From: Squalus acanthias | Taxonomy: Eukaryota | Direction: 5' to 3' | DNA: 64,000 nt | Assembly: GCA_030390025.1 (NCBI GenBank) | Contig: CM059431.1 | Coordinates: 140,618,001 to 140,682,000, forward strand | Shown: positions 65 through 45,100 of the stretch, in pieces | Layout: each line of letters begins with the position of its first letter | How positions within the stretch are numbered: position 1 is the first letter of the stretch | Translations under genes and position numbers: made by a program | The notes under the pieces: model-generated | Told to the model about the DNA's origin: nothing | Seen by the model: the letters and a program-made list of their open reading frames with translations, nothing else | Databases searched by the model: none

Positions 65-930
65 ATATGACCAGAGATGATGTATCTGATTTAGTAGATG
101 GTGAGATTGTTATTGTACTGACCAGAGAAGATGTATCTAATTTAGTAGATGGTGAGATTGTTATTGTACTGACCATAGAAGATGTATCTAATTTAGTAGA
201 TGGTGAAACTGCTTTTGTACCGACCAGAGAAGATGTATCTGATTTAGTAGATGGTGAAGGTGCTATTGTACTGACCAGAGAAGATGTATCTGATTTAGTA
301 GATGGTGAGGGTGTTATTGTACTGACCAGAGAAGATGTATCTGATTTAGTAGATGGTGAAGGTGCTATTGTACTGACCAGAGAAGATGTATCTGATTTAG
401 TAGATGGTGAGGGTGTTATTGTACTGACCAGAGAAGATGTATCTGATTTAGTAGATGGTGAGGTTGTTATTGTACTGACCAGAGAAGCTGTATCTGATTT
501 AATAGATGGTGAGGGTGTTATTGTACTGACCAGTGAAGATGTATCTGATTTAGTAGATGGTGAAGGTGCTATTGTACTGACCAGAGTAGGTGTATCTGAT
601 TTAGTAGATGGTGAGGGTGTTATTGTACTGACCAGAGAAGATGTATCTCATGTAGTAGATGGTGAAGGTGCTACTGTACGGACCAGAGAAGATGTATCTG
701 ATTTAGTAGAGGTAAAGGTGTTATTGTACTGACCAGAGAAGATGTTACTGATTTAGTAGTTGGTGAGGGTGGCATTGTACTGACCAGAGAAGATGTATCT
801 GATTTAGTAGATAGTGAAGGTGTTATTGTACTGACCAGAGGAGGTGTATCTTATTTAGTAGATGGTAAAGGTGTTATTGAACTGACCAGAGAAGATGTAT
901 CTGATTTAGAAGATGGTGAAGGTGCTATTC
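65..930 (-). repeat. 51-bp tandem repeat; minus strand reads TITPSPSTKSDTSSLVS, about 17 copies, downstream of the mucin stop
   Basis: Unit actgaccagagaagatgtatctgatttagtagatggtgagggtgttattgt. Confidence 0.9.
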
Positions 931-1151
931 TTCTCATCAGGAAAGAAGAATCTATGCTGAAATATAGTGAGGTGCTATTGAAATTGAGAGATGATGTATC
1001 CGAATCAATAGATGATGAAGCTGCTTCTCTACTCGCCTGTGAATGATGTAGCCTGACTTAGTGATGATGAACGTGCTGTAATACTGATCTGGAGTGTTGT
1101 AGCCTGATTAGTGGATGAGAGTGGTACTATTCTGAACTGGGATAGTGTAGC

Positions 1152-4100
1152 CTAATTAATAGATGATGATGGTGCTGTACTGACCTGGGATGGTGTAGTC
1201 TGATTAATAGATGATGATGGTGCTGTACTGACCTGGGATGGTGTAGTCTGCTTTATAGACGATGATGGTGCTGTATTGACCTCGGATGTTGTAGCCTGAT
1301 TTATAGATGATGATGATGATGCTGTATTGACCTGGGATGGTGTTGTCTGATTTATAGATGATGATGGTGCTGTATTGATCTGGGATGGTGTAGTCTGCTT
1401 TATAGACGATGATGGTGATGTATTGACCTGGGATGGTGTAGTCTGATTTATAGAGGTCGATGGTGCTGTATTCACCTGGGATGGAGTAGTCTGCTTTATA
1501 GATGATGATAGTGCTGTATTGACCTGGGATGGTGGAGTCTCATTTATAGATGATGATGGTGTTGTATTGACCTGGGATGGTGGAGTCTGATTTATAGATG
1601 ATGATGGCGCTGTATTGACCTGGGATGGTGTAGTCTGTTTTATAGACGATGATGGTGATGTATTGACCTGGGATGGTGTAGTCTGATTTATAGAGGTCGA
1701 TGGCGCTGTATTCACCTGGGATGGTGTAGTCTGCTTTATAGATGATGAACGGACTCTAGCACTGACCTGGAATTTTTTAGACACCGCAAAAGTTAATGTC
1801 AATGCTGAATGTAAAGCCGGAAGCAGCATTGGTCTCATAGTGACAGCTGATGACTGTTGCATGGTTCTACCTGTCAGGGAGGGTGGAAACACATTGTTGT
1901 TTTCGTTCGATGATGGTGCCTTTACCTTGTTGGAAGACGGAGGCACATTCGCACTGGACAAGCTGGGCACACTCGCACTGCTCACGATAGGTACAGTCTC
2001 ACTGGTCAGGCTGGGCACACTCGCACTGCTCACGATGGGCACAGTCTCAGTGGTCACGATGGGCACAGTCTCACCGGTCACGATGAGCACCGTCTCATTG
2101 GTCACGATGGGCAGAGTCTCACCGGTCACGATGGGCACCGTCTCATTGGTCACGATGGGCACCGTCTCATTGGTCACGATGGGCAGTGTCTCACCGGTCA
2201 CAATGGGCACAGTGTCACTGGTCACGATGGGCAGATTCTCATTGGTCACGATGAGCACAGTCTCACTGGTCACGATGGGCAAAGTCTCACTGGTCACGAT
2301 GGGCACAGTCTCAGTGGTCACGATGGGCAGATTCTCATTGGTCACGATGGGCACATTCTCATTGGTCACGATGGGAAGATTCTCACTGATCACGATGGGC
2401 AGAGTCTCACTGGTCACGATGGGCACAGTCTCACTGGTCACGATGGGCACAGTCTCAGTGGTCACGATGGGCAGATTCTCATTGGTCAAGATGGGCAGAT
2501 TCTCATTGGTCACGATGGGCACAGTCTCACTGGTCACGATGGGCACAGTCTCACTGGTCACGATGGGCACAGTCTCACTGGTCACGATGGGCAGATTCTC
2601 AGTGTTCACGATGGGCACAGTCTCACTGGTCACGATGGGCACAGTCTCAGTGGTCACGATGGGCAGATTCTCATTGGTCACGATGGGCACATTCTCATTG
2701 TTCACGATGTGCAGATTCTCACTGATCACGATGGGCACAGTCTCAGTGGTCAAGATGGGCACAGTCTCAGTGGTCACGATGGGCACGGTCTCAGTGGTCA
2801 CGATGGGGACAGTGTCACTGGTCACGATGGGCACAGTCTCATTGGTCACGATGGGCACAGTCTCACTGGTCACGATGGGCACAGTCTCATTGGTCACGAT
2901 GGGCACAGTCTCAGTGGTCACGATGGGCACAGTCTCACTGGTCACGATGGGCAGATTCTCATTGGTCACGATGGGCAGAGTCTCACTGGTCACGATGGGC
3001 AGATTCTCAGTGTTCACAATGGGCACAGTCTCACTGGTCACGATGGGCACAGTCTCAGTGGTCACGATGGGCAGATTCACATTGGTCACGATGGGCAAAT
3101 TCTCATTGGTCACGATGTGCAGATTCTCACTGATCACGATGGGCACAGTCTCAGTGGTCAAGATGGGCACAGTCTCAGTGGTCACGATGGGCACAGTCTC
3201 AGTGGTCACGATGGGGACAGTGTCACTGGTCACGATGGGCACAGTCTCATTGGACACGATGGGCACAGTCTCACTGGTCACGATGGGCACAGTCTCATTG
3301 GTCACGATGGGCACAGTCTCAGTGGTCACGATGGGCAGAGTCTCACTGGTCACGATGGGCAGATTCTCATTGGTCACGATGGGCACAATCTCACTGGTCA
3401 CGATGGGCACAGTCTCACTGGTCACGATGGCCAGATTCTCGTTGGTCACGATGGGCACAGTCTCACTGTTGACGATGGGCACAGTCTCACTGTTCACGAT
3501 GGGCACAATCACATTGGTCACGATGGGCAGAATCTCACTGGTCACGATGGGCACAGTCTCACTGGTCACGATGGGTACAGTCTCACTTGTCACGATGGGT
3601 ACAGTCTCACTAGTCACGACGGACAGAATCTCACTGGTCACGATGGGCACAGACTTACTGGTCACGATGGGCAGAATCTCACTGGTCACGATTGGCACAG
3701 TCTCACTCGTCACGATGGGCACAGTCTGACTGGTCACGATGGGCACAGTCTCACTGGTAACGATGGGCAGATTCTCAGTGTTCACGATGGGCACAGTCTC
3801 ACTGGTCACGATGGGCACAGTCTCAGTGGTCACGATGGGCAGATTCTCATTGGTCACGATGGGCACATTCTCATTGGTCACGATGTGCAGATTCTCACTG
3901 ATCACGATGGGCACAGTCTCAGTGGTCAAGATGGGCACAGTCTCAGTGGTCACGATGGGCACAGTCTCAGTGGTCACGATGGGGACAGTGTCACTGGTCA
4001 CGATGGGCACAGTCTCATTGGTCACGATGGGCACAGTCTCACTGGTCACGATGGGCAGATTCTCATTGGTCACGATGGGCACAGTCTCAGTGGTCACGAT

Positions 4101-6802
4101 GGGCACAGTCTCACTGGTCACGATGGGCACAGTCTCACTGGTCACGATGGGCACAGTCTCACTGGTCACGATGGGCAGATTCTCAGTGTTCACGATGGGC
4201 ACAGTCTCACTGGTCACGATGGGCACAGTCTCAGTGGTCACGATGGGCAGATTCTCATTGGTCACGATGGGCACATTCTCATTGTTCACGATGTGCAGAT
4301 TCTCACTGATCACGATGGGCAGATTCTCATTGGTCACGATGGGCAGAGTCTCACTGGTCACGATGGGCAGATTCTCAGTGTTCACAATGGGCACAGTCTC
4401 ACTGGTCACGATGGGCACAGTCTCAGTGGTCACGATGGGCAGATTCTCATTGGTCACGATGGGCAAATTCTCATTGGTCACGATGTGCAGATTCTCACTG
4501 ATCACGATGGGCACAGTCTCAGTGGTCAAGATGGGCACAGTCTCAGTGGTCACGATGGGCACAGTCTCAGTGGTCACGATGGGGACAGTGTCACTGGTCA
4601 CGATGGGCACAGTCTCATTGGACACGATGGGCACAGTCTCACTGGTCACGATGGGCACAGTCTCATTGGTCACGATGGGCACAGTCTCAGTGGTCACGAT
4701 GGGCACAGTCTCTCTGGTCACGATGGGCAGATTCTCATTGGTCACGATGGGCACAGTCTCAGTGGTCACGATGGGCAGAGTCTCACTGGTCACGATGGGC
4801 AGATTCTCATTGGTCACGATGGGCACAATCTCACTGGTCACGATGGGCACAGTCTCACTGGTCACGATGGCCAGATTCTCGTTGGTCACGATGGGCACAG
4901 TCTCACTGTTGACGATGGGCACAGTCTCACTGTTCACGATGGGCACAATCACATTGGTCACGATGGGCAGAATCTCACTGGTCACGATGGGCACAGTCTC
5001 ACTGGTCACGATGGGTACAGTCTCACTTGTCACGATGGGTACAGTCTCACTAGTCACGACGGACAGAATCTCACTGGTCACGATGGGCACAGACTTACTG
5101 GTCACGATGGGCAGAATCTCACTGGTCACGATTGGCACAGTCTCACTCGTCACGATGGGCACAGTCTGACTGGTCACGATGGGCACAGTCTCACTGGTAA
5201 CGATGGGCAGATTCTCAGTGTTCACGATGGGCACAGTCTCACTGGTCACGATGGGCACAGTCTCAGTGGTCACGATGGGCAGATTCTCATTGGTCACGAT
5301 GGGCACATTCTCATTGGTCACGATGTGCAGATTCTCACTGATCACGATGGGCACAGTCTCAGTGGTCAAGATGGGCACAGTCTCAGTGGTCACGATGGGC
5401 ACAGTCTCAGTGGTCACGATGGGGACAGTGTCACTGGTCACGATGGGCACAGTCTCATTGGTCACGATGGGCACAGTCTCAGTGGTCACGATGGGCAGAT
5501 TCTCATTGGTCAAGATGGGCAGATTCTCATTGGTCACGATGGGCACAGTCTCACTGGTCACGATGGGCAGATTCTCATTGGTCACGATGGGCACAGTCTC
5601 AGTGGCCACGATGGGCAGAGTCTCACTGGTCACGATGGGCAGATTCTCATTGGTCACGATGGGCACAATCTCACTGGTCACGATGGGCACAGTCTCACTG
5701 GTCATGATGGGCAGATTCTCATTGGTCACGATGGGCACAGTCTCACTGTTGACGATGGGCACAGTCTCACTGTTCACGATGGGCAAAGTCACATTGGTCA
5801 CGATGGGCAGAATCTCACTGGTCACGATGGGCACAGTCTCACTGGTCACGATGGGTACAGTCTCACTGGTCACGATGTGTACAGTCTCACTAGTCACGAC
5901 GGGCAGAATCTCACTTGTCACGATGGGCACAGACTCACTGGTCACGATGGCCACAGTCTCACTCGTCACGATGGGCAGAATCTCACTGGTCACGATGGGC
6001 ACAATCTCACTCTTCACGATGGGCACAGTCGCACTGGTCACGACGGGCACAGACTCACTGGTCACAATGGGTACAGTCACACTGGTCACGATGGGCAGAT
6101 TCTCACTGGTCACGACGGGCACAGACTCACTGGTCACGATGGGCACCGTCTCACTCGTCACGATGGGCAGAATCTCACTGGTCACGATGGGCACAGTCTC
6201 ACTAGTCACGATGGGTACAGTCTCACTGGTCACGATGGGTACAGTCTCACTAGTCACGGCGGGCACAGACTCACTGGTCACGACGGGCACAGTCTCACTC
6301 GTCACGATGGGCACAGTCTCACTGGTCACGATGGGTACAGTCTCACTGGTCACGATGGGCACAGTCTCACTGGTCACGATGGGTACAGTCTCACTAGTCA
6401 CGAAGGGCACAGTCTGAGTGGTCACGATGGGCACAGTCGCATTTTTCATGACGGGTGCCATCGTACTGGTCACGATAGGAATGGTCACACTGGTCATGAA
6501 GGGCACAATCGCACTGATCCAAGAATCCATAATTGTGGATAAACTGAAAGCCCCTAAGGATGCTGTAGAGGTTGGAGGCTGTGCTGTTGAACTGGGGTGT
6601 GGACCTACTCTACCAAGTGAATAGGAGGTTTCCATTGATGCAGGGTGAATGGGCGATCGAGGCGCAGTTGAACTTCTCATGGACCTGGTTGTACTTTTGA
6701 TGCGGTGGTTCACAATCCTGGAGTTGAGAGAAAGTGGATTCTGGGATTCGGTGAGCGTCGGTAGCCCATTGGTCGCGGAATGCGCTCTGGTCATAGTTGT
6801 CA
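1152..6802 (-). CDS. Exon 7: 5651-nt mucin-like (PTS) exon, about 1880 aa
   Basis: Polypyrimidine tract TTGTTTCTCCTACTTCGCACAG acceptor ending at 6803; phase matches exon 6; open frame to TAG at 1152-1154. Confidence 0.85.
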
Positions 6803-9800
6803 CTGTGCGAAGTAGGAGAAACAATGTCAAAAGATCATGGGAGGCAACGGGCAGTAAAGTTGGACTTGGGCAAAGATGGAAAACAGGGAGAATCGCATTT
6901 GCCAGCCGTTTTGCAACACGCCTGATATCCGGTTCTGTTGAAAATAGTGGAATGAATATCGGGGTTTATAAAGAAAGAAACGGGAGACCGATGACATAAC
7001 GCCTGTTTTGCGCCTTTGCACTTGTCCAATTTCACCCACAACTTCTAGAGACACGCTCAAAATCAGCGCCTGTGAAAAGTGGAGCTCAGGCACAAACCAG
7101 CTCTGCATTCCAGTTAATGTGACCATTGTCATATGTGAAGATCCCTGAGGATATCTACATTGGTGAACCTCCCGCTGGGAGTGAGGCCAAGCAGATGGCT
7201 CAGGGCTTCCAATTTTTTCGCTTAGAAAACTGAGCAAACATAAAGGATTCAGGAAGGTCAAGGGTTGAATGGGTAAAATCCCCGCTTCAGTGCTCCTGGC
7301 AAATACCCAGGAGAAAATATCATGAAACTGGACAGTGATTTAAAACTAACAGCGATGAATTGTTAGGATCTGGAATGCACTGACTGAAAGTGGGGTGGAA
7401 GCAGATTCAATAGTAACTTTCAAAGGGGATTCGGATAAATATTTCTAGAGGAAAACTGCAGGGCTATGGGGAGAGGGCAGGGCACTGGAACTAATTGGAT
7501 TGCTCTTTCGAAGCGCCGACACAGGCACTATGGGTCGAATGGCCTCATTCTACACTCTATCCTTCCAGGATTCATTTCCATTTGCTATTTCTTCTTCATT
7601 TTGATTCCTAACCCAATGTGAGTAGCTTCCCATCTGTACAGCCTGGGAGCAGCGCATCCAGGAAATTCTGGAGCTGAGCTTTGCATTCTGGGAACGAAAC
7701 CTGCCCGATTTTCCTTCCGTTATTTTCGTTGCAGTTTTTGTTCGGGCCGTGTAACCTTCCCGCCACATTCTCCCTTATTAACCCCTCCTAGGGAGTTCTT
7801 AAAGCTGAGAGGCGTGGTGAAATTCGATAAGGATGGGGACGCGAGACAGGAGGAATCGCTCTCACCAACCATTATGGACACGCCCGATATCCAGTTCTTT
7901 TGAAGTCAATGGGACCGAATATGGGGCGGAGCGGATATCGGACACCTGATGCAACACCGTACGTTTTGCGAACTCGCCAATGTCGAATTTCACCGTCCCC
8001 CATACTTAGTCCGGTCTGTTGCTGTACCCTTACCTTTATATACAGGACAGGTTATCTTGTTCACGTCCAGGTAACTTTTTCCTCCCAGGGCTATCGCCAC
8101 CTGTGACATTGTTGTAAGGTTTTCCCAGTTTCCCCGAGAAATTTCATGCACCATTTTCTGCACAGATTTGGTGCAATTATAGACACGTGAGGTGAACACG
8201 TTTATGTTTTCGTCCAGGGCCTGGAGTGTAAAGAAGGTAACACTAATTTTAATATTTAATTTTAATGATCCGGAGATCATTTAGTCTGAGCACATATGAA
8301 CTCTGTTTCAAAGCACTGTAATATAAAGTGGGAGTGAATGGAAATAAAAATCGGGAGAGATCGGGCTGCAGATTCGCCATCTCCGTTTTACACCTTAAAG
8401 AGTGTGCAGTGACCCAGGGACGTGGGAGTTAATGGCATAGTTCCCTGAAGGTGGCAGGACATATTGAGAGAGTGGTTAGCAATGCCAATGTCATAAATAA
8501 AGGTATTGAGTACAAAAGTAGAAAAGTTATGCTCAGCCTCTTTGAAGCGCTGGTTAGACCACAACTGGCGTGTTGCATCCAGTTGTGGTCACCACAGTTT
8601 AGGAAGGATATGAAGGACCTTGAGAGAATGCAGAGGAGATTTACCATAATGGTTCCGGGGATGGGGTATCTTAGCTACAAGGACAGTTTGGAGAAGTTGG
8701 ATTTGTTTTCATTAGAGCAAAGGAGGTTGAGGGATGATTTGATGGAGATTTACAAGATTATGACGGGTTTGGATAGGCTAGACGGGGAAAGGCTTATCCC
8801 ACTAGTTGATGGTACAAGGACTAGGGGACAAAGATTTAAGGTTTTGTGCAAGAGGTACAATGGGGGATGTGAGGAAAAACATTTTTTATGCGGCGAGTGG
8901 CGAAGACCTGGAATTCGCTGCCGACGAAAGTTGTGGAAGCGGAGACACTCAATGCTTTCACGGGGAGACTGGGTAGGCACTTGATGGAATAAACTTGCAG
9001 GGCTACGGGGATGGAGCGGGGGAATGGGACTGACTGGATGTTCTACAGAGAGCCGGATTGGACTCGATGGGCCGAATGGCCTCGTTCTGTGCCGTTATGA
9101 ATCTATTACTCTATGATTCTATTACTGAAAGGTGAACTAAAAGAGCTCTTCAAAATTATGAATGGATTTCATAAGGTAAACGTAGAGAAGATGTCTCCAC
9201 TTGCAGGGTGAGTCCAAAACTAGGGTCCATACATATAAGATAGCCACTCATAAACCCAACAAGGAATTTAGGAGAAACTTCTTCACTAGAGAGTGGATAG
9301 AAGTTGTAACTCGCTATCACAAGGAGTAGCATAGGAAGCGAATAACAAAGATTGATTTAAGGGAAATATATATGAAGGATAAAGGAATAGAAGGATATGG
9401 TGATAGGGTTAGTAGGGCGGGAGGAGCCTCGTGTGGCCCACAAACACACGAATGACCTGTTTCTGTACTGAACATTCCATTTAAAGATTGTCCTCTTGGA
9501 ATTTGAAGTCAACCAGTTTCTCAATATAACTCAACATCCTGTTTACATTGTTTATCGCCACTTCAGTGTATTGATTTGATGAACATTGAATCATTCGTAT
9601 TCTGTTGTGATTACTTTAACTGTGAGCGATGATGTACAATGGCCAATTTTGAATTAACCGGCCATTGTATACCATGCCCGATTTTCCTTTGCATTGAATC
9701 CATGGAAGGTAAAATCTGGCGCCTGTAAATTGAAGAGCAATTGGATATTACCCATTTTACACCTTCACCAAAAGTTAAAATCACCCCTTAAATCTATTTC

Positions 9801-12800
9801 AACCAATGCCCTCCGCTCCTGGCGAGTTCTATCCCATGAAAGATATCGAGGTGTCTCAGAATCTTCCACTAGGATGTATTTTGCAATACTTCACACTGAA
9901 CGTCATCTGAACACATTAAACACCGATACACCAATACTGCAAAATCGTTTCTATGCTCTAATTGTTTAAGGTCTATCGCTTAATATGTTGTGAAGAAGCT
10001 GTTAGTTACTAACTGCCCTTAGCTCTAATTAAATCAGAATCCTATTTTCTAATTTCACATCACAATACCTGCATGGCCAGCCCTGTACTGCTCAAGCTCC
10101 CAATGGTCCCGTCCTCTCTCACTTCACTTAGAATCCGCCTCATTATCCACATTAAAGCCTTTGCGATGTCAAGCCGAGATCTGCCTCTTGGTTGTTGCGA
10201 GTGTATCAAACACCTCAGACTAAGTGCCGCGGTGGCCATTGTATCTACAACACAGGAAACAATTACCATCGGTTCATGGAGTAAATTTGACAGGAGGGTC
10301 GGTAACGAGAGGACACAGATGTACGATATTGGCAAAAGAATCTGAGGGGAGATGGGGAGTCATTTTTGCTTTTTTACACAGGGAGTTGTTATAATCTGGA
10401 ATGCACTGCCTGAACGGGTGATGGAAGCAGATTCAATGGTGACTTTGAAAAGGAAATTTGATATATACTTGATAAGGATACAAATACAGGGTTATGGCCT
10501 ATGGGGAAAGAGAAGGGAGAGTGGGATTAATTGGGGAGCTATTCAAAGAGCCACCACAGGTACGATGGGCCGACAGGCCTCCTTCTATAAGTTTAGATGA
10601 TTCTATAATATCCGAAGCCTCCCATGCACAAGCGATCCGATCACCCATGGATGAAGAGACGCTTCCCAAATTTCCCATCATTTTCCTCACAACCGGTGTC
10701 CAATGGACTCCCTCCCAGCACTCTTCATCAATCGTAACCGGTGAACGCAAGTAACCTCTTTCCAAACTCCATCAAATGGATATCTTCACCATTCGTAACC
10801 GGTGAACCCAGTAACCTCTTTCAAAACTGCATCAAATGGATATCTTCACCGACCGTAACCCGTGAACCCAGCTAACCTCATTCAAAACTCCATCAAATGA
10901 TATCTTCACCGACCGTAACCTGTGAACACAGGTAACCTCTTTCAAAACTGCATCAAATGGGTATCTTCACCGACCGTAACCTGTGAACCCCGGTAACCTC
11001 TTTCAGAACTCCATCAAATGGATATCTTCACCGACCATAACCTGTGAACCCAGGTAACCTCATTCAAAACTCCATCAAATGGATATCTTCACCAATCGTA
11101 ACCTGTTAACCCAGGTAACCTCTTTCAAAACTCCACCAAATGGATATCTTCACCGACCATAACCTGTGAACACAGGTAACCTCTTTCAGAACTCCATCAA
11201 ATGGATATCTTCACCAATCGTAACCGGTGAACGCAGGTAACCTCATTCAAAACTCCACCAAATGGATATCTTCACCAATCGTAACCCGTGAACCCAGGTA
11301 ACCTCATTCAAAACTCCACCAAATGGATATCTTCACCGACCGTAACCTGTTAACCCAGGTAACCTCTTTCAAAACTGCATCAAATGGATATCTTCACTGA
11401 CTGTAATCTGTGAACACCGGTAACCTCTTTCTATAACTCCATCAAATGGATATCTTCACCGACCGTAACCTGTGAACCCTGGTAACCTCTTTCTATAACT
11501 CCATCAAATGGATATCTTCACTAACCGTAACCTGTGAACCCCGGTAACCTCATTCAAAACTCCATCAAATGGATATCTTCACCGACCGTAACCTGTGAAC
11601 CCTGGTAACCTCATTCAAAACTCCATCAAATGGATATCTTCATCGACCGTAACCTCTGAACCCAGGTAACCACTTTCAAAACTCCATCAAATGGATATCG
11701 TCACCGACCATAACCTGTGATCCCCGGTAACCTGTTTCTACAAATCCAACAAATGGATATCTTCATCGACCGTAACCTGTGAACCCTGGTAACCTAATTC
11801 AAAATGCCATCAAATGGATATCTTCATCGACCGTAACCTGTGAACCCAGGTAACCTCATTCAAAACTGCATTAAATGGATATCTTCACCGACCGTAACCT
11901 GTGAACACAGGTAATCTCTTTCAAAACTGCATCAAATGGATATCTTCACCGACCGTAACCTGTGAACACAGGTAACCTCTTTCAAAACTCCATCAAATGG
12001 ATATCTTCATCGACCGTAACCTGTGAACCCAGATAACCTCTTTCTATAACTCCATCAAATATATATCTTAGCCGACCGTAACCTGTGAACCCCGGTAACC
12101 TCTTTCTAAATCTCCATCAAATGGATATCTTCACCGACCGTAACCTGTGAACTCAGGTAACCTCTTTCAAAACTCCATCAAATGGATAGCTTCACCGACC
12201 ATAACCTGTGAACCCTGGTAACCTCTTTAAAAACTCCATCAAATGGATATTTTTGAAACTATAAAATGAAACATCTTGTCTGCTCAGACATACCTACTGT
12301 TAATTCTTTCCCGTGATGAGCGATCTTCCTGAGATGAGCCCGGATGAAATTATGAATGAGAAAGCCCGGGACAGGTTCCTCCTCCTGACACAGCGCCAGG
12401 ATCGCCAGGCTGGCTTCAGTAAAGGCCTTTAGAGAATATCCAGCGTTTTCTGTAAATACAGTGACAGTCTCCAATTTTAGTGATATGCTCCACATCTGAC
12501 AAACGGGAGCTACAGATATGAGAATTCCTCACTAGTTCGTCCCCGATTCTCTCTGTGTGCCAGAAATCAGGCCAAGGATTTAAATGAATAAATAGAATTG
12601 GTGTAGAATTTACAGCACAGAAGGAGGCTATTCGGCCCAACAGGTCTAATTATGCTCCACATGAGCCTCCTCCTACTTTACTTCATCTCAGTCGAGCAGC
12701 TTACCCGAGGGAGCTTATTCATATCTCCCTCATGAACTTGTCTAACTTCGCCTTAAATACATCTATACAATTCGCCTCAACTTCTCATGTGTTAGCAATT

Positions 12801-24844: not shown

Positions 24845-27230
24845 AACATAAGAAATAGGAGCAGGAATAGGCCACTTGAGCCCTTGAGCCTGCTCCGCCA
24901 TTCAATAAGATCATGGCTGATCTTGGGCTCAAAGTCACTTCCCAGTCCGCTCCCCATAACCCTTCACTCCCTTATCTTGCAAAAATCTGTCTATCTCCGC
25001 CTTAAATGTATTTAATGACCCAGCCTCCACGGCTCTCTGGGGCAGAGAATTCCACAGATTTACAACCCTCTGAGAGAAGAAATTCCTCCTCATCTTAGAT
25101 CTAAAAGGGCGACCTTTATTCTGAAACTCCCACGAGGGGAAACATCCTCTCTGCATCTACCTTGTCGAGTCCGCTTAGTATCTTATATGTTTCATTATGA
25201 TCACCTCTCATTCTTCTAAATTCCAATGAGTATAGGCCCAACCTGCTCAACCTTTCTTCATAAGTCAACCCCCTCATCTCTGAAATTAACCTAGTGAATT
25301 GTCTCTGAACTGCCTCCAATGCAAGTATATCCTTCCTTAAATAAGGAGACCAAAACTGTACGCAGTACTCAAGGTGTGCTCTCACCAATACACTGTACAG
25401 TTGTAGCAGGACTTCCCTGCTTTTTAACTCCAACCCCCTTGCAATAAAGCCCAACATTCCATTTGCCTTTTTGATTAATTGCTGTACCTGCATGCTAACT
25501 TTGTGTTTCATGCACAAGGACCCCCAGGTCCCTCTGAACTGTAGCATTTTGCAATCTCTCTCCATTTAAATAATAATTTGCTTTTTTATTTTTCCTGCCA
25601 AAGTGGATAACCTTGCACTTTCCCACATTATACTCCATCTGCCAAATGTTTGCCCACTCACTTAGCCTATCTATAATCCCTTTGCAGATTATTTGAGTCC
25701 TCTGCACAACTTGCTTTCCCACCCATCTTTGTATCATACACAAACTTGGCTACATTACACTTGGACCCTTCATCCTAGTCATTAATGTAGATTGTAAATA
25801 GTTGGGGCCCCAGCACCGATCCCTGTGGCACCCCACTAGTTACCGTTTGCCAACCGGAAAATGGACCATTTATCCCGATTCTCTGCTTTATTTTAGTTAG
25901 CCAATTCTCTATCCATGCTAATATATTACCCCCAATTCCGTGAGCTCTTATCTTATGCAGTAACCTTTTATGTGGCACCTTGTCGAATGCCTTCTGGAAA
26001 TCCAAATGCACCACATCCACTGGCTCACCTTTGTCCACCCTGCACGTTACATCCTCAAAGAACTCCAGCAAATGTGTTAAACATGATTTCCCTTTCCTAA
26101 AACCATGCTGACTCTGCTTGACTGCAGTATGTTTTTCTAAATGCCCTGCTACTACTTCCTTAATGAAGGACTCCAGCGTTTTCCCAACGACAGATGTTAG
26201 GCTAACTGGTCTATAGTTTCCTGCTTTCTGTCTCCTTCCTTTCTTAAATAGGGGTGTTACATTTGCGGTTTTCCAATCCGCTGGGCCCTCTCCAGAGACC
26301 AGGGAATTTTGGTATATTGCAACCACTATCTCTGCAGCCACTTATTTTAAGACCCTGGGATGCAGGCCATCTGGTCCAGGGGACTTGTCGTCTTTTAGTC
26401 TCATTATTTCAGCAATTACTTTTTCCTTAGTGGTAGTGATTGTCTTTAGTTCCCCCTCCCTGTGGCCCCTTGATTATCCATTATTGGGATGTTGTTAGTG
26501 TCTTCTACCATGAAGACAGATACAAAATATTTGTTCAGAGTCTCTGCCATTTCCCCGTTCCTCTATATTAATTCCCCAGTCTCATCCTCTAAGGGACCAA
26601 CGTTTACTTTAGCTGCTCTCTTCCTTTTTATATACCTGTAGAAGCTCTTGCTATCTGTTTTAATATTCCTTTCCAGTTTACTCTCATAATTCATCTTCTC
26701 TCTGTTAATTTGTTAGTCATCCTTTGCTGGTTTTTAAAAATTTCCCAATCCTCTGGCCTCCCACCAAACTTGGCAACATTGTATGTCTTCGTTTTCAATT
26801 TGATACCACCCTTTACTTCCTTAGTTAGCCAAGAATGGTGCTCCCTTCTCTTAAAATCTTTCTTTCTCACTGGAATATATTTTTGATGAGAGTTATGAAA
26901 TATCTCCTTAAATGTCCACCACTGCATTTCAACTGTCTTACCTTTAACTTATTTTTCCAGTCCACTTTAGCCAGTTCTGCCCTCACGCCATCTTTGTTTA
27001 AGATCAGGACACTGGTTTGAGATACAACTTTCTCACCCTCCAACTGACTTTGAAATTCAACCATGCTATGATCACTCTTTCCTAGAGGATCCTTTACTAT
27101 GAGATCATTTATTCATTATGTCTCATTGCACAGTACCAGATCCAAGATAGCCTGCTCCCTGGTTGGTTTCATTATATAATGTTCTAGGAAATCATCCCGG
27201 ATACACTCTATGAACTCCTCCTCAAGGCTA
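24845..27230 (-). mobile_element. CR1-clade LINE, about 2.4-kb 5'-truncated copy with frameshifted RT
   Basis: [53 protein letters not shown]. Confidence 0.95.
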
Positions 27231-34144: not shown

Positions 34145-37100
34145 TTATAAATTGTAATAATCAAACTCCACTTTCAGTCCGGGTCTTGTATCCTGCAGCA
34201 ACTTCAGCTGATTCTCTCTGGTTGAACTGAACTGATTCCCCCAAAGCCTGAAAGATTCAACAGGAAATAAACAGATTGAACATCAGTGTAAATAACAGGG
34301 AGACGAGTTAATATTTCATTAATAATTACAGCCAAATATTACCCATAAAAGTGACTGAATCCCATTAATATTTTATTTATTCCACAGGCTGAATGGCATC
34401 CTTCTGCGCTGTAAATGTCTCTGATTATATAAACACTCACCGGATCTCCTCCAGACTCCTGCAGGTCAGTATGAGGCGGCGGAGAGCAGGGACAGATCGG
34501 TCTGTGAAGGAGTTTGATCCCAGGGACAGAACCGTCAGTGACCGGTTTGTACTGAGAGCGGAGGCGAGATCCTCGGCACAAGAATCTGCGAGACCAACAT
34601 TCCATAGACTGGGGATCAGAGAGAGAAAGAACAGGAATCAGAGTAAGTCCCTAGGGCTAGAAATTAGTCTGGGGCGGTGGTGATAGCCGGGCGGTATCGG
34701 CTCGGCCGCCCGTTATACGCAGCGCCTGATATTCAGTTGTATTGCAGTCAATGGAACTGACCATCAGGCTCTGCGTATAACGGGCGGCCGATCCGGTACT
34801 GCCCGGCTTTCACCACCGCCCCAGACCAACTTCTAGGCCCCAGTGTTTATTATCAGTAACATTGTTATTAATAGACACTGTACATTATTGAGTGTCAGTA
34901 ATACTGTTAATAATCTAGTGTTTATTCATAATATCACTGATACGAATAATGTACAGTGTCAGACATCCAGTTATTATAAACACAATCTCACAGTCTGGTA
35001 CTTACCCCAGTTTCTGTATTTTACAGTCCGGGTTCCTCAGAGCCGCAGACAGTAGTTTCACTCCTGAATCTCCCAGTTTATTATTACCCAGGTTCAGATC
35101 CGTCAGTGAGCGGTTTGTACCGAGAGCGGAGGCAAGATCACCGGTACAAGAATCCGTGAGACCGTTATTCCAGAGCCTGGGATCAGAAATAAATAACAGG
35201 AATCAGGGTAAATCCCCAGTGTTTATTAATAAAACTTCCTGATACTAATACCAATGTACAGTGTTTCCTAATGACATTTAATGATGATAAACACTGTACA
35301 TTATTAGTAATAGTGTTATTACAGTTAATGCTTATGCGAGGAAGGATATACTTGCCTTAGAGGCGGTGCAACGAAGGTTTACTAGATTGATTCCTGAGAT
35401 GAGAGGGATGTCCTATGAGGAGAGATAGAGTCAATTGGGCCTATGTTCTCTGAGTTTAGAAAAATGAGAGGTGATCTCAGTGAAACATACAAGATACCGA
35501 GGGGGATTGACAGGGTAGGTGCCGAGAGGTTGTTTCCCCTGGCTGGAGAGCCTAAACTAGGGGGCATAGTCTCAGGATAAGGAGTCGGCCATTTAAGACT
35601 GAGATTAGGAGGAATTTCTTCACTCGGAGGGTTGTTAATCTTTGGAATTCTCTACCCTAAAGGGCTGTGGATACTCAGTTGTTGAATATATTCAAGACAG
35701 AGATAGACAGATTTTTGGACTCTCGGGGAATCAAGGGACAAGGGGATAGGGCGGGAAAGTGGAGTTGAGATCGAAAATCAGCCAAGATCTTATTTAATGG
35801 CGGAGCAGGCTTGAGGAGCCGTATGGCCTACTCCTGCTCCTTATGTTTGTTATGTTATTAATCAACACTGTACATTCATAACACTATTACTGATACTGTT
35901 AGACATCCAGTTATAAACACAATCTCACACAGTCTGGTACTTACCCCAGTTTCTGTATTTTACATTCCGGGTTCCTCAGAGCCGCAGACAGTAGTTTCAC
36001 TCCTGAGTCGCCCAGTTTATTATTACCCAGGTCCAGAACCGTCAGTGACTGGTTTGTACTGAGAGCGGAGACGAGATCCTCGGCACAAGAACCTGTGAGA
36101 CCGACAGCATCCAACCTGGGAATGAGAGAGAGAATAACAGGAATCAGAGTAAATTCCCAATGTTTAGTAACAGCACTGTTACTGATAATAATAATGTAGT
36201 GTTAGACATCCAGATACTATAAACACAATCTCAGAGTCTGGTATTTACCGTAGTTCCTGTATTTTACAGATCGGGTTCTTCAGAGCCGCAGACAGTAGTT
36301 TCACTCCTGAATCTCCCAGTTTATTATAACTCAGGTCCAGAACCGTCAGTGACCGGTTTGTACTGAGAGTAGAGGAGAGATCCTCAGCACAAGAATCTGA
36401 GAGACCGACACCCCACAGACTGGGGATCAGAGAGAAATAACATGAATCCGGGTAAATCCCCAGTGTTTATTAATAACACTATTACTGATACTAATAATAA
36501 TGTTCAGTGTCAGACATCCAATTATTATAAACACAATCTCACAGTTGACACTTACTCCAGTTCCTGTATTTTACAGTCTGGGTTCCTCAGAGCCGCAGAC
36601 AGTAGTTTCACTCCTGAATCTCCCAGTTCATTTCCACTCAGGTTCAGAGCCTTCAGGGACCAGTTTGTACTGAGAACGGAGACAAGATCCTCGGCACAAG
36701 AAGCTGTGAGGCCAACAACCCGTAGGCTGGGGATCAGAGAGAAATAACAAGAATCAGAGCAAATCCCCAGTGTTTGTTAATATCAATATTGATAGTAATA
36801 ATCTACAGTGTCAGACATCCAGTTATTATAAACACAATCTCACACAGTCTGGTACTTACTGCAGTTCCTGTATTTTACAGTCTGGGTTCCTCAGAGCCGC
36901 AGACAGTAGTTTCACTCCTGAATCTCCCAGATTATTATTACCCAGGCTCAGAACCGTCAGGGACTTGTTTGTACTGAGAGCGGAGGTGAGATCCTCGGCA
37001 CAAGAATCTGTGAGACCGTTATTATCCAGACTAGGGATCAAAGAGAGAAATAACCGGAATCAGAGTAAATCCCGTACCTTTAATAAAAACACTATTACTG

Positions 37101-37250
37101 ATAATAACTAACACTGAACATTATTATTAGTATCAACACAATCTCACACAGTCTGGTACTTACCGCAGTTCCTGTATTTTACAGTCCAGGTTCCTCAGAG
37201 ACGCAGACAGTAGTTTCACTCCTGAATCTCCCAGTTCAGTGCTCCCCAGT
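34145..37250 (-). CDS. LRR exon array of NLR: 87 nt + five 171 nt + 168 nt + terminal 103 nt
   Basis: [56 protein letters not shown] repeats; phase 2-2 exons. Confidence 0.93.
34654..34840. mobile_element. Palindromic MITE of about 187 bp (possibly Harbinger-type)
   Basis: Arms pair over nearly the whole length (GGGCTAGAAATT...AACTTCTAGGCCC); absent from the paralogous LRR introns, which read aaatccccagtgttt. Confidence 0.8.
35335..35858 (+). mobile_element. CR1-clade LINE 3' fragment in an LRR intron
   Basis: Near-identical to the 3' end of 31172-32670. Confidence 0.9.
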
Positions 37251-38046
37251 CTAAACAAACAGCCAGAGTGAAAAACAAACTGAATCAAACCCCGGATCTG
37301 ATACAATTTCTCTCTCTCTGATATTAAAGGAAACACTGAAAAAACTTCAGGAAATTAATAACCAGCCTTTCCTGTCACTGACAATGAATCTTACTCTGTC
37401 CAACTCCCCACCACCTTCTGTCTCAGAGGCGCGAGTATTGCCAGCAGGGCGAAGAGATGGTGGATGTATTGGAGAGTTTTAAGGGCGGTGTCATTGATGA
37501 GTTAAGATAACATACTGACGCCCGGTGGGGAAAGCTCAGCTCGCCCACTGGCGGTTCGCTGCCTGAAAGCTGTGATTCGCTCTTTGTTACTGAATGTTTG
37601 GTGTTTCTGCTCCTCTCTCCGACACACGCTGACAGTCCGATGACGGTCACTGGCCCTACACCTCGGGAATAGGGTGGGATGCTCCACGGACTGCTGTAGT
37701 TAGTGTCGGCCTACATGCCTGTAACAGTGAGAAGGAGCCTCTTCAATTAATGTATCTTAGACAGTGAGAGAACAATAAATATGATTTATTGTAATTAAAT
37801 CAGACTCTGACATGTATTTGCTGATCCGACAAAGACTAAAATTCATACTTGTTCACAAAAATCCATTTTAGATTTTCCAGTCCATAGGGAATTACTAACC
37901 GATCCTCTTATTATTGGTCATATTTGTGTTGAATCTGCTTCTCTCTGGTTTAACTGAACTGTTTGTTTCCCTCCATTACGGAGCAACAACACAATCCGTG
38001 ACTGTTCTACAATTCGTCCAACAGTTAGAGACAAATAAACAGTTAC

Positions 38047-39784
38047 CTCAACACCCGGCATTTGTGTAGTATTGGTCCCAGCCGCTGGAGTCCTTCACAC
38101 TGAAAGTGGCAGTGCACCAGATCAAGGTGTTTTATTGTATCACAGAGTCCAAGGATATGAGACAGGACCGCACAGTCACTCGGAGTCAGTACCAATCCAC
38201 GAAATATAAGTGTTTCCGCAGATCCCACTGTGTCCCGAGCCAGTGTGTAATTCTGAGACTCAAACAGGTAGTGCAATGTGTTCAGGAGGTCCCTTTGACC
38301 AGTTTCCCTCTCTTTGTTCTCAATCTGTCCATCAACCTTCTCCTTCACCCAGTCAATCACTCGGCAGGTGGTTTGATGAAGAAATGGACCCAGGAACTCC
38401 TCCAGGGGCCGAGCTGCCTGTGGGGAGGAGAGACCAGCAACAAAACGGAGAAATATCTCAAATCGCCCATCTTCCTTGCTGTGGGATTCTCTGAGGAGTT
38501 TCCGGATGTCCCCGGGATCTGGAGTCAGGAGTTGAGCGAGTGCGGCTACAAACTCTTGGATGGTGAGGTGCGGGAATGTGTACACCACGCTCTGGGCAGA
38601 ATCATCACTCTCCAAAAGTTCCATCATGAACCCAGACAGGAACTGGGAAGGTTGCAGATTGTACTTGATCAAATCTCCATTTCTAAACACAATCTTCTTC
38701 TCGGAGACTCCTGTGAAGGCCATCTCACCGATCTTCAGTAACACATCACGGGGGCTTTCAATCGCTCGGCCATGGTTTCTCAGAATGTTGTAGATATAGT
38801 AGGAATATAGTTGGGTGATGGTCTTGGGAACTCGCTGCTGATTCCTGTCTCTTTGTGTAAAGAAGGGGCCCAGTGACAGACCGAGGATCCAGCAGTAGGA
38901 AGGGTTGTAGCACATGGTGAACAGGATCTCGTTCTCCTCCACATGTTTGAAAACAGCTGCTGTCACCGTCTGATCTTCAAAAAACTTGTTGAAATATTCC
39001 TTCCGTTCTTCATCAACAAATCCCAGGATTTCAGCCCAGACACTGATCTCAGCCTTTTCCAATAAATGTAATGCAGTGGGGCGGCTGGTCACTAGCACTG
39101 AACATCCTGGGAGCAGCTTGTGCTGTATTAAACTGTACACAATGTCAGACACTTCACACCAGCATTCGGGATCTGTGCACATGAATTGAGGTTCTGTATT
39201 TCTCCGATTGTCAGCAAAATCGATGCGGTCCTTGAATTCATCCAAACCATCGAATATAAACAGCAATCCCTCTGGGTTCTTCCAGAGCTCTCCCAGAATA
39301 TTCCAAAAGTAAGGATACTGATCCAGTATCAGATTCCTCAGATTAATTCTACAGTTAATTGCGTTCAAATCTCAGAATTTAAAACTGAAAACAAATTGAA
39401 AGTGTGGGTATATTTTCCCAGTGGCCCAGTCATAAACAATCTTTTGTACCATTGTTGTTTTTCCAATCCCCGCGACTCCACTCACTGCTGCTGAACTCCC
39501 AGAATTGGATTTTCTCCGGGAAAAACTGCTCTGGAACAATTGATCAGTTCGGATTTTCTCCAATTCTGTCCAGAGATGTTTCTCTCTCCACTCTTCATGG
39601 TCTCGGCCTCTTGCCAGCAGTTCATGTTCTGCAAGTGTCCGATCTCGAACAGTAGAAATGACCGTTAGCTCAGCGTATCGATCAACCAGCTGGAAAACCT
39701 TAACCTTCTCCTGTATTAGGATAGTGTTCACTCTCAGTGTTTCAGTTTGTACCCGGAGTGTTTCCTTGTGTTTCTGTTGAAGAT
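38047..39784 (-). CDS. NACHT exon of NLR (interrupted by TGA at 39372-39374)
   Basis: Walker A GVAGIGKT, Walker B LLFIFDGLDE, sensor VLVTSRP, winged-helix YTFPHLTIQEFVAA, FLRFVAGL. Confidence 0.95.
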
Positions 39785-40259
39785 CTTCAATTAGAACAGA
39801 CAGAAAATGGATGTCAACATTAGTTGCATTGACATAAAAACTTCTCAATACCACTTTAGTATTCAGTAAAATATTGAAAGGATTAATTCAGTTTCAATAA
39901 AGGTGTGTGTAGAAATTAAAACTCATTTAATGGAAACCTCGCTTGAAAGTGAACAATGGCCGAGAAAAGTTTCCAATCCTCACTTGATTCTAATATTCAC
40001 TGAACACGGATAATTCTATGAAGGTGATATTTTCCCTCTGATGGTTAATACTATCCAGCCTGCCCTGTGCTATAGACATCTCATTATAAATACACACATG
40101 ATCCTGGTTATACGACAGTAGAGGTTCTAGTGGATCAATCTTTGAATCCGTCGGAAACGGGATTGGTTGCTCACCGAGAGGGACAATGTGCAGAAGATCC
40201 ACTGTTACTTTTATCAGGCCTTGAGCATGTTTTCTGGCCTTGAGCATGTTTTCTGAGTT

Positions 40260-40922: not shown

Positions 40923-41688
40923 ATCCTGCCAGGTGTGTATGGGGTTTCACAGTGTATCAGGATCCTGCCAGGTGTGTATGGGAATTCACAGTGTATCAGG
41001 ATCCTGCCAGGTGTGTATGGGGTTTCACAGTGTATCAGGATCCTGCCAGGTGTGTATGGGAATTCACAGTGTATCAGGATCCTGCCAGGTGTGTATGGGG
41101 TTTGACAAAGTATCAGGATCCTGCCAGGTGTGTATGGGGTTTCACAGTGTAGCAGGATCCTGCCAGGTTTGTATGAGGCTTCACAGTGTATCAGGATCCT
41201 GCCAGGTGTGTATGGGGTTTCACAGTGTATCAGGATCCTGCCAGGTGTGTATGGGGTTTCACAGTGTATCAGGATCCTGCCAGGTGTGTATGGGGTTTCA
41301 CAGTGTATCAGGATCCTGCCAGGTGTGTATTGGGTTTCACAGTGTATCAGGATCCTGCCAGGTGTGTATGGGGAGTCACAGTGTATCAGGATCCTGCCAG
41401 GTGTGTATGGGGTTTCACAGTATCAGGATCCTGCCAGGTGTGTATGGGGTTTGACAAAGTATCAGGATCCTGCCAGGTGTGCATGGGGTTTCACAGTGTA
41501 TCGGGATCCTGTAAGGTGTGTATGGGGTTTCACAGTGTATCAGAATTCTGCCAGGTGTGTACGGGGTTTCACAGTGTATCAAGATCCTGCCAGGTGTGTA
41601 TGGAGTTTCACAGTGGATCAGGATCCTGCCAGGTGTGTATGGGGTTTCAGTGTACAGGATCCTGCCAGGTGTGTATGGGGTTTCAGCA
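40923..41688. repeat. Intronic minisatellite, 39-bp unit, about 20 copies
   Basis: atcctgccaggtgtgtatggggtttcacagtgtatcagg. Confidence 0.95.
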
Positions 41689-42108: not shown

Positions 42109-45100
42109 CAAGTTCCTGTATTTCTCTCAGTATTTTGTCCAGCTTTGGCACCTCTTGGCGCATTTTCACAAAGGATTCCCACATCACCCTACGAGCCCGA
42201 GAGCCTTTCTCCATCACCAGATTTAGGAGAAGTTTGGAACTGTCCGCCCGGTTTCCCTTCTCCACGAGGTCAGTGACTTTCTGTAAAGAATAATTATGAA
42301 TATATTGAGGAGTGGAGTGAAAGACAAGCACCGAGAATGAGAAGGAAAGGATCTGCTCAGTGATGGGATCTCCCAGTTGTTTTGAGCACAGAAAGCAGTC
42401 ACTGGGCCGGGTACTGATCCATTCTGAACAGGGGCGGAATATTCTGTAAACATCTTGATTCACTCATTAACGGGAAATAAATCAGATGAAACTAAAATAG
42501 AAAATCAGAAATAATGTCTAGGAGAGTGAGGAATCACTGACAATCTGCAGTAGTTTTAATGAAATTAGTTTTCTCTGTCCTTCAGTGTCCAACATGACAT
42601 CAGATTCCTGATAGACAATATGATACACTTGTTTCTCACACTTACTTCCTGCTGTCACACTTTGATTTAATGAGAAGTAAACACAGCAGCGAATCTGAAC
42701 TGAAATGGCAGTTAAGGGATGATTCTTAAGTGAGGGAAAACTGTGAGAAATTACACCGACTAATTGAAACAACCGCTGGTGATTTATCGGTCAAGAGAAT
42801 CGACCAATAATAAGAACGTTGAAAAGTCCAATCACTTTTCCCCTCAGTAATTGAAATGTCTGACATGCATTATTTTGCACACCCGCTGCCAGTATGAACC
42901 CTCGGTAACTGGGAGCACATATCCAGCAATGGGGCTCGTGTAGTCAGGACATTCATCATCAAAGCTTACATTTATATAGCGCCTTTAACGTAGAAAAATG
43001 TCAAAAATCCCTTCACAGAGGCACAATCAGACAATGGAGGTCAAGTGCGGCAGTGTGCTGGTTATGTTACTGGACCAGTAATCCAGAGACAAGAGTTCAA
43101 ATCTCACTATGGCGGTTTGCGAATCTGTATCGGCAACATTTGGAAATAAAAAGCTGTTATCAGTAAAAAAAGACTGTGGTAAAACCTGATGACCTTTCGG
43201 TCTGGTCCATGTGTGACTCTAGTCCTTTACCAATATGGTGGCCTCTGAAATGGCCTAGCAAGCCGCTATAAAGAAGGGTATAGAAGAATAAACCCCGCTG
43301 CGCACTCAGCATCGGCATCAGATTCAGACACAACGAAGGAACACCCGGACCAGAACTCACTAACATCTGGGGCTAGTACCAAAGTGGGGAGAGGTGGACC
43401 ACACATTAGTCAAGTAAATGTGTGACGCAGTTATACTTACAAAATCATATTTATTCATCAAGATCCCTCAAGACTCCTCCATCAGCATCCCTGGGTGTGT
43501 CCTGTCCCACTGGAGAGTGACCCCGAGAGTCCTCAACATTGAAGTCTCATGGCTTCAGGTCAAACGTGGGCAAGGAAACCTCCTGCTGATTACCGCCTAC
43601 CACCCTCCCTCAGCCGATGAATCAGTGCTCCTCCATGTTGATCAACTCTTGGAGGAAGCACTGAGGGTAGTAAGGGCACAGAACGTACTCTAGGTGGGGG
43701 TGGGAGACTTTAACCAAGTGTTACCAAACGATTCGATCCACTCTACGTGATCAGGAAACGGCTGAGTGCACTGAACACAGCAAAGGCTATGAGCCCGACA
43801 ACATCCCGGCTATCATGCTGTAGACTTGCGCTCTAGAACTAGCCGCGCCTCTAACCAAGCTGTTCCAGTACAGCTACAACACTGGCATCTATCCGATAAT
43901 GCAGAACATTGCCCAGGTACGTCCTGTCCACAAAAAGCAGGACAAATCCAACCCGGCCAATTACCGCCCAATCAGTCTACTCTCAATCATCAGCAAAGTG
44001 ATGGAAGGGGTCGGCGACAGTGCTATCAAGAGGCACTTACTCACCAATAACCTGCTCACCGATGCTCAGTTTGGGTTCCACCAGGACCACTCGGCTCCAG
44101 TCCTTATTACAGCCTTGGTCCAAACATGGACAAAAGAGCTGAATTCCAGAGGTGAGGCGAGAGTGACTGCCATTGAGATCAAGGCAGCATTCGACAGAGT
44201 GTGTCATCAAGAAGTCCTATTAAAACTGAAGTCAATGGGAATCAGGTGGAAAATTCTCCACTGGCTGGTGTCATACCCTATGTTCCCTGTAATTTTTTTT
44301 GGCCCTGCACGGCCCCTTTAAGGGGCTGCGCCGGCCATTCAAAATACCGGGCATGCGCGGTTTTTACACTGAAATGCCGGCTGCCCAGGTTCCCTGGAGC
44401 ACTGCTCAGCCGCGCGCCTAACAGGGAGCACTGGTAATAACCAGTACAAAGGAAGATGGTTGTGGCCATTGGAGGCCAATCATCGCAGCCCCAGGACATC
44501 ACTGCAGGAGTTCCTCAGGTCAGTGTCTTGGGCCCAACTATCTTCAGCTGCTTCATCAATGACCTGCCCTCCACCGTAAGGTCAGAAAAGCGGCTGTTCC
44601 CTGATGATTGTACAGTTCGGCTCCATTCACAAATCCTCAGATAATGAAGCAGTCCATGCCTGCCTGCAGAAAGACCTGGACAACATCCAGGCTAGGTCTG
44701 ACAGGTGGCAAGTAACATTCGTGCCAAACAAGTGGCAGGCAATGGCTTTCTCCAACACGAGTCTCAGCACCTCCCTTTGTAAATCAATGGCCCTACCATC
44801 ACTGATCCCCCCCACCCCACCATCAACATCCTGGGGTTACAATTGATCAGAAACTTAACTGGACCAGCCACATAAATGCCGTGGCTACTAGAGCAGGTCA
44901 GAAGCTGGGTATTCTGCGGGGAGTGGCTCACCTCCCGACTCCCCAAAGCCTCTCCAACACGTATAAGGCACAGCTCAGGCGTGTAATGGAATACTCTCCA
45001 CTTGCCTGGAAGGGTGAAGAAAGAGTTTCCAGTCTCTGGGCCTGCGGCAAGGCCGTAATAATAGGGGCTCAGAGTGACTCTCTTTCAATGTCTTCAGTCT

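Follow-up and report, generated by a model that had tools for sequence, protein, structure and literature searches.

The stretch analysed here, which we call the window, comprises 64,000 nucleotides of the 3.7-Gb genome of the shark Squalus acanthias (contig C7, positions 140,618,001–140,682,000). On its minus strand, from 20308 to 1152, lies a seven-exon gene that joins half of a vitamin B12 carrier to a mucin-like tail. Its product is laid out as a hydrophobic leader, a complete α domain of the transcobalamin/intrinsic-factor type and a 1883-aa tail of Thr/Ser/Pro/Val/Ile repeats. Judged by comparison of copies and species, the gene is a member of a young, tandemly amplified, elasmobranch-specific family, and it is the most intact of the 13 copies that we examined.

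The exons were sought by tblastn with P0001, a 330-aa protein of Mustelus asterias named “cobalamin binding intrinsic factor-like,” which is the closest relative in the databases. This search returned five collinear α-domain exons on the minus strand of the window, and the full model adds to these exon 1 and exon 7 (Table 1). AG and GT are present at every internal exon boundary, the intron phases are 1, 1, 1, 1, 0 and 1, and the joined coding sequence (CDS) of 6594 nt contains a single stop, at its very end, giving a product of 2197 aa. The leader, which was called by eye and by its likeness to the N-termini of relatives, is predicted only. An earlier note, made from the letters of the window, had proposed that small exons scattered among repeats splice with consistent phases into a signal peptide and an α domain. 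On re-derivation, the coordinates in that note, the junction of 8034 with 6802 and the estimated sizes were all correct, and the splice dinucleotides, the phases and the single terminal stop agree with the proposal.

Table 1. Exons of the gene and repeat arrays of its 3′ end (positions are those of the window; splice sites are marked by a slash)
Feature	Position	Strand	Description
Exon 1	20239..20308	(-)	ATG at 20308; hydrophobic leader MPPVMTLTLLLFSASYPATSQQC; donor GCA/GTAAGT, phase 1
Exon 2, α domain	18946..19128	(-)	PF01122 positions 29–79; 18.2 bits alone
Exon 3, α domain	16845..17015	(-)	PF01122 positions 90–128; 21.3 bits; donor AAAG/GTAAGT
Exon 4, α domain	12294..12449	(-)	PF01122 positions 136–178; 17.4 bits; holds KAFTE at the TNYYQ site
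Exon 5, α domain	10069..10244	(-)	PF01122 positions 183–240; 38.1 bits, above cut-off
Exon 6, final α-domain exon	8034..8220	(-)	ends ...GKSYLDVNKITCPVYK; donor AAAG/GTAAGG, phase 1; 40.2 bits
Exon 7, terminal	1152..6802	(-)	5651 nt including TAG stop at 1152–1154; 1883-aa Thr/Ser/Pro/Val/Ile-rich tail
Non-repetitive start of exon 7	6340..6802	(-)	VTTMTRAHSATNGLPTLTESQNPLS...DSWISAIVPFMTS; aligns to Chiloscyllium P0048 tail, E 3e-4
24-bp × 190.6 tandem array	1942..6516	(-)	8-aa units TVPIVTSE and variants; aligns to Narcine P0002 tail
48-bp × 14.6 array	1043..1748	(-)	16-aa units SSSINQTTPSQVNTAP; CDS stops within the array, at 1152
51-bp × 16.9 array	68..929	(-)	17-aa units DTSSLVSTITPSPSTKS; 3′ of the stop; interrupted by a stop and a frameshift

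The head can be placed with some precision. The Pfam profile of the α domain, PF01122, has 317 positions and a cut-off of 25 bits. When exons 2–6 were translated and scored singly, each matched this profile, and in collinear order, with only exons 5 and 6 passing the cut-off alone; exon 6 also matches the solved structures of intrinsic factor (3kq4, 2pmv) and haptocorrin (4kki). We also made a hidden Markov model (HMM) of 427 positions from 47 two-domain relatives; the spliced head matches its positions 5–300 with a score of 239.9 bits. The six Cys of the head (23, 104, 162, 205, 268 and 310) all fall in conserved Cys columns, which are Cys in 32, 45, 46, 47, 37 and 46 of the 47 relatives, respectively, and presumably pair into the three α-domain disulfides known from the transcobalamin structure. 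Of the 37 columns with at least 80% conservation among these relatives, 29 are kept. Membership of the head, by its α domain, in the TCN1/TCN2/CBLIF family, which the earlier note had read from the exon peptides and from the placement of six family Cys, is thus supported by both profiles and by every one of the Cys.

Head and tail meet at a well-formed splice junction. The exon 6 donor, AAAG/GTAAGG at 8034/8033, and the exon 7 acceptor, ...CTACTTCGCACAG/TG at 6803/6802, in which a polypyrimidine tract leads into CACAG/TG, are both of phase 1. An intron of the same position and the same phase occurs in three other carrier genes of this genome, a canonical two-domain gene on C1824, a TCN2-type gene on C13 and an α-only gene on C12. 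Because position and phase are equal in all of these, the repeat exon occupies the place of the exon with which canonical carriers begin the linker and the β domain. The splice into the repeat exon is in frame, as the earlier note had it, but does not come directly after the last Cys of ...NKITC, since exon 6 ends five codons past that residue. The picture of a linker that has become a giant stalk is also supported in one part and not in the other: the repeat exon does stand at the exon 6/7 junction, where the linker begins in the canonical relatives compared, but no β domain was found to follow that would make it a stalk between two domains.

To look for that domain, the last 140 aa of 46 carriers were compared by tblastn with the window, with 40 kb of sequence downstream of it and with the other carrier loci (E ≤ 0.01). 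Neither the window nor the 40 kb past its left edge, where the earlier note had suggested looking, yielded a β-domain exon; the three β exons of the C13 gene, which served as a positive control, were found by the same search. Nor does any part of the 2197-aa protein match the β section of our 47-relative HMM. A genome-wide search with PF14478 gave no match, which is a weak test since introns split the β domain. A genome search with the canonical shark carrier P0003 returned β-type exons from two contigs only, C1824 and C474, both of which have α exons as well. From this search and the separately found C13 β exons, which together were not exhaustive, no stand-alone β gene was identified in the genome.

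The other carrier loci are of some interest in themselves. The TCN2-type gene with β exons lies at C13:56460526-56498837 (L001, L007, L013), and the unplaced contigs C1824 and C474 hold several canonical CBLIF-like copies with β exons. The α-only gene lies at C12:103838524-103849179 (L005, L015). Its last exon is 83% identical to the model from the sawshark Pristiophorus, and no β exon was found in the 20 kb that follow it.

The tail consists of T (20%), V (18%), I (12%), S (11%), P (11%) and E (9%), among other residues, with T+S+P at 42% and no Cys. Exon 7 begins with ~150 non-repetitive residues, continues through the 24-bp array, a spacer of ~70 residues and the 48-bp array, and ends at its TAG. 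Long Pro/Thr/Ser-rich tandem repeats are thus contained in a single large exon, as is expected of a mucin. The 1937-aa open frame of exon 7 matched no Pfam family, and the same scan, together with the lack of Cys in the tail, shows none of the VWD, C8, TIL or cystine-knot domains of the gel-forming MUC2-type mucins. A single-sequence AlphaFold2 prediction for a 300-residue piece of the tail had low confidence (mean predicted local distance difference test score of 46), with weak 6-residue strands every 8 residues, and speaks neither for firm order nor for disorder. The stop codon is a CAG→TAG change relative to paralogs whose frame continues for ~40 codons as ...SSSINQATLSQFN. The 51-bp array 3′ of it is probably former coding sequence that has come to lie in the 3′ untranslated region, and an AATAAA occurs ~130 bases past the left edge of the window. 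Two features of the repeats bear on whether they are translated. The three exon arrays have periods of 24, 48 and 51 bp, all divisible by 3, and two intronic satellites have periods of 61 and 43 bp, which are not. Further, the window's copy runs for 1882 codons without a stop despite 318 one-step paths to one.

The same layout is found in other elasmobranchs. An exhaustive profile-free search yielded 86 relatives; word-index searches went no further than the query's own cluster or a single shark protein. One relative is a RefSeq protein of the electric ray Narcine bancroftii, XP_069792302.1 (P0002), which is named “mucin-2-like” and is 993 aa long. Its α domain (residues 80–365) is followed by ~630 aa of degenerate Thr/Ser/Pro/Val repeats and by no β domain, and the tail aligns to exon 7 with 31% identity (E 1e-16) and a common VP(I/V)VT.E theme. 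Another, GCC19399.1 (P0048), is annotated in the bamboo shark Chiloscyllium punctatum as a hypothetical protein; it joins α exons to a tail alignable with the non-repetitive part at the start of exon 7 (Table 1). As far as genome sequence can speak, the architecture is real at the DNA level and old in elasmobranchs, spanning orders, and the databases have it only in automatic models that drew no remark. The earlier note, which knew of no protein of this architecture, is corrected on this point by these two unnamed models. Our literature searches found no paper on a carrier α domain fused to a mucin-like region, and in the main text of a shark-skin proteome (PMC10707392), cobalamin, intrinsic factor, haptocorrin and B12 are all absent.

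The phylogeny with TCN1, TCN2 and CBLIF that the earlier note had proposed places the protein within the family. In a quick maximum-likelihood tree of 56 α domains, where all supports are the tree's Shimodaira–Hasegawa-like approximate likelihood ratio test (SH-aLRT) values, the window's protein groups with those of Mustelus and Narcine in a clade supported at 100, whose stem measures 0.87 substitutions per site. Sister to it, with a support of 96, is a clade of the α-only models of a sawshark and two stingrays. Both clades lie on the TCN1/GIF side, apart from TCN2. The length of the stem branch suggests a change of function.

Within the shark genome, the non-repetitive start of exon 7 occurs in 16 full copies and 1 partial copy with 90–100% identity, eight on C7 between 137.85 and 143.73 Mb and the others on unplaced contigs. 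We compared 13 copies, the window's and 12 others, from exon 6 onward. In every one of the 12, exon 6 is followed by an intron of ~1.2 kb and then by an exon 7 that starts as in the window's copy and goes on to the same three types of repeat. Both GT and AG are kept in 10 of the 13 copies, the window's included; L018 has a GG donor, and L025 (C3500) and L027 (C1065) lack donor and acceptor. In L028 (C1142), a stop occurs four codons into exon 7. The L028 product would be α-only and in this resemble the RefSeq model of Mustelus, with its end at ...YKVQ. Measured from the acceptor, 4 to 1882 codons precede the first stop, and the longest such frame is that of the window's copy. Only that copy and L019 are open to the end of the 16-aa array, with L023 nearly so. 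As their sequences stand, the copies are in birth-and-death turnover, with several decaying, and the window's gene is the best candidate for a working copy among the 13 examined.

On balance, we lean toward the view that this is a real coding gene for a secreted mucin-like glycoprotein, the carrier head of which has been repurposed and is most likely no longer a B12 clamp. The tail would be coding because its splice sites are sound and agree in phase, because they stand at the family's own intron position, because the array periods are divisible by 3 and because two independent models from other orders repeat the layout. If the gene is transcribed and spliced as modelled, a leader peptide would direct the product to secretion, and the head would be a disulfide-stabilised globular module descended from the α domain of TCN1/GIF-type carriers. 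The single terminal exon would join it at the intron where canonical carriers go on to the linker and β domain. The ~1880-aa Thr/Ser/Pro/Val/Ile repeats would form a long stalk, probably O-glycosylated. The head is most likely not a B12 clamp because the β domain is absent and the corrin-contact motif is replaced; it would instead bind another partner, as a module carried by a glycoprotein of mucus or glands.

Two parts of this reading are open to challenge: what the head binds, and whether the tail belongs to the protein at all. With regard to the head, TNYYQ is the α-domain motif that makes hydrogen bonds to the corrin ring (Lopes-Marques et al., PMC4350170). Position by position, its consensus residues occur in 30, 25, 34, 37 and 38 of our 47 relatives. 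The site reads KAFTE in the window's protein, KTFNE in Mustelus and KVLTE in Narcine, a replacement at five of five positions in all three members of the clade; the α-only sister clade retains TD(F/Y)(Y/D)Q. In the part of the work of Bloch et al. on human transcobalamin (TC) that is drawn on here (PMC5599065), separately expressed TC-α carried no cobalamin (Cbl) after purification, TC-β lost it only after extensive washing, and holo-TC assembled from separately made α and β halves only when cobalamin was added. An interface analysis of rat TC, in the portion used here (PMC11107200), ranks Cbl/β above Cbl/α. Given the lost motif, the empty TC-α and this ranking, it is unlikely, by analogy with TC, that the head clamps B12 as a stand-alone domain; assembly in trans with a β-domain protein is possible. 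The name “cobalamin-binding,” which the earlier note gave to the mucin, is therefore not supported. One could nevertheless hold to it and suppose that the head captures corrinoid weakly alone or closes on a B12-loaded, free β-domain protein, such that mucus would hold or withhold B12. We consider this unlikely. The α fold, the disulfide Cys and the conserved columns kept in the head speak for it, as do the cobalamin-dependent assembly of TC from its halves, the recognition by cubilin of cleaved IF30.Cbl.IF20 (PMC6257451, in the part used here) and the existence in teleosts of β-only (DUF4430-only) Tcn-like proteins (PMC4350170). It has to contend with the complete replacement of TNYYQ, the TC-α that held no cobalamin by itself, the lack of an identified stand-alone β gene in our non-exhaustive genome search and the long stem. 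Quite improbable, in our estimate, is the related proposal of an old elasmobranch mucin family whose half-carrier head closes in trans on B12-loaded β-domain proteins or on corrinoids directly. Were it true, the vitamin would be tethered or sequestered in mucus, either as nutritional immunity or as a luminal B12 store, and the burst to at least 16 copies in the shark would reflect selection on that function.

Several observations weigh against our reading as a whole. Where the head is concerned, GIF and TCN2 likewise form fewer of the hydrogen bonds of TNYYQ (PMC4350170), and loss of the motif would weaken canonical binding but does not exclude it. Where the tail is concerned, the objections are those of another account, which we regard as doubtful and in which there is no fusion protein: an α-only or dead carrier copy lies beside satellite-like repeats whose unit length is a multiple of three by chance, and the head-plus-tail models of other species are gene-prediction artefacts. 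The antisense frame of the repeats, 1914..6542 (+), is also open, for 1542 aa of GHDGHSLT units in which no consensus codon is one step from a stop; the length of an open frame over such repeats therefore proves little. Among the 13 copies, exon 6 has a ratio of nonsynonymous to synonymous polymorphism (pN/pS) of 0.85 and a p-distance of 0.027; the exon 7 start has values of 0.87 and 0.075, respectively, and intron 6 has a p-distance of 0.050. Both ratios are close to neutral, and the exon 7 start diverges faster than the intron, so that no purifying selection is apparent within the family. The 186 repeat units vary most at second codon positions, with no third-position excess, and their Glu codons show too few changes (3 G→C, 2 G→A and 0 G→T) for stop avoidance to be tested. 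Exon 7 is shortened, or a splice site lost, in 10 of the 13 copies, among them the broken L018, L025, L027 and L028, and the Mustelus RefSeq model is α-only, ending two codons past exon 6. Finally, no transcript supports the gene: none of the sequencing runs listed is recorded as RNA. Four read sets (X1–X4) aligned to 6250–10400 gave cover over transposon-like stretches and a few short X1 contigs, with none on exons 5 and 6, and are uninformative either way; the contigs over the first exon 7 repeats (~6290–6392) have 7–8 mismatches each, and one 153-nt X1 contig (6789–6940) runs unspliced across the exon 7 acceptor. What the account without a fusion leaves to coincidence is the strong donor and acceptor, of matching phase, at the family's own intron position, the contrast in divisibility by 3 between exon arrays and intronic satellites, and the stop-free frame of the window's copy with its many paths to a stop. 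It also does not explain why the non-repetitive exon 7 start is recognisable in the bamboo-shark model, and the ~630-aa open, degenerate tail of the ray model is hard to account for without selection. A different objection would be that the repeat exon is internal and that the gene continues to a β domain or another module past the 40 kb examined. The 51-bp array and the AATAAA 3′ of the stop could be taken in that sense, as could the origin of the stop itself by CAG→TAG relative to some paralogs; but paralogs without this change still end their frame ~40 codons later, no β exon lies in the 40 kb downstream, and the Narcine model ends without a β domain. We hold this to be very improbable.

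The three B12 carriers are textbook two-domain clamps. Should the preferred reading of a repurposed head on a mucin-like tail be correct, this would, to our knowledge, be the first known reuse of the carrier α fold outside a clamp. An α half alone on a tail of ~1900 residues, in a layout conserved between shark and ray, offers a natural test of what a lone α domain can do. The family may also explain the truncated look of many elasmobranch “transcobalamin-like” RefSeq models. For annotation, the case carries a warning, as genes of one type carry, in three species, the labels “mucin-2-like,” “cobalamin binding intrinsic factor-like” and “hypothetical protein,” and the open antisense frame is a caution for gene calling based on open reading frames.

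The rest of the window is rich in satellites, with arrays at 14640–16768, 10722–12250, 21621–22477, 40923–41685, 54135–55816, 62219–64000 and 52611–53631. Among them are a 43-bp unit in 49.5 copies (intron 3), a 61-bp unit in 25 copies (intron 4), three arrays of 39-bp units, one of 55-bp units at the right edge of the window and a tract of (AG)n; several of the satellites yield long open frames on both strands and in multiple frames. In intron 5, 8335–9446 has very deep cover from all four read sets, as expected of an abundant repeat. Reverse-transcriptase (RVT_1) fragments of retroelements lie at 25778–26341 (-), 43824–44318 (+) and 50684–52552 (-). Two adjacent open frames with a stop codon between them, at 38046–39887 (-) and 35911–37236, match NACHT, NOD2_WH and NLRC4_HD2 (E 7e-21 to 3e-12). 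Just downstream on the same strand is a 304-bp repeat in 4.3 copies, which could represent leucine-rich-repeat exons. By these matches, the frames and the repeat look like a NOD-like receptor-type innate-immunity gene or pseudogene beside the carrier-mucin gene.

Among known systems, the closest comparison is with the canonical carriers TCN1 (haptocorrin), CBLIF (gastric intrinsic factor) and TCN2 (transcobalamin), which combine PF01122 with the β domain, PF14478. The window's protein shares with them the predicted leader, the α domain, the six Cys and the exon structure as far as the phase-1 intron; unlike them, it has no linker or β domain, carries KAFTE in place of TNYYQ, ends in the 1883-aa tail and stands on a long stem. 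The ray protein XP_069792302.1 is alike in its Pro/Thr/Ser- and Val-rich tail, which begins 4–5 residues past the last Cys, in its lack of a β domain and in its clade. It differs in that its tail is shorter and degenerate rather than made of 190 near-identical 8-aa units and in that its N-terminus was modelled without a leader; as it has no VWD or cystine-knot domains, its name “mucin-2-like” is compositional only. The α-only models (Pristiophorus japonicus P0004; Hypanus sabinus and Hemitrygon akajei P0005, P0091 and P0093; and the C12 gene) also lack a β domain, but they end ~10 residues past the α domain (...DNLSGK, ...DNLPKGENER), just beyond the same intron, and keep the corrin motif in the form given above. 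A 2014 survey of chondrichthyan carriers described Tcn1/Gif, Tcn2 and a divergent Tcn3 in little skate, all stated to be two-domain proteins (PMC4350170). The β-only Tcn-like proteins of teleosts resemble the window's protein in that half a carrier is encoded alone, and differ in which half it is, in lineage and in having no repeat tail.

On the mucin side, the nearest counterparts are the small secreted non-gel-forming mucins of the MUC7 type, which have a leader, tandem Pro/Thr/Ser repeats in one large exon and no transmembrane segment. All of this holds for the window's protein as modelled, as does the absence of Cys-rich D or cystine-knot domains from the tail. It departs from the MUC7 type in that its head is the α domain of a B12 carrier and in that Val and Ile make up an unusually large share of its tail (30%).

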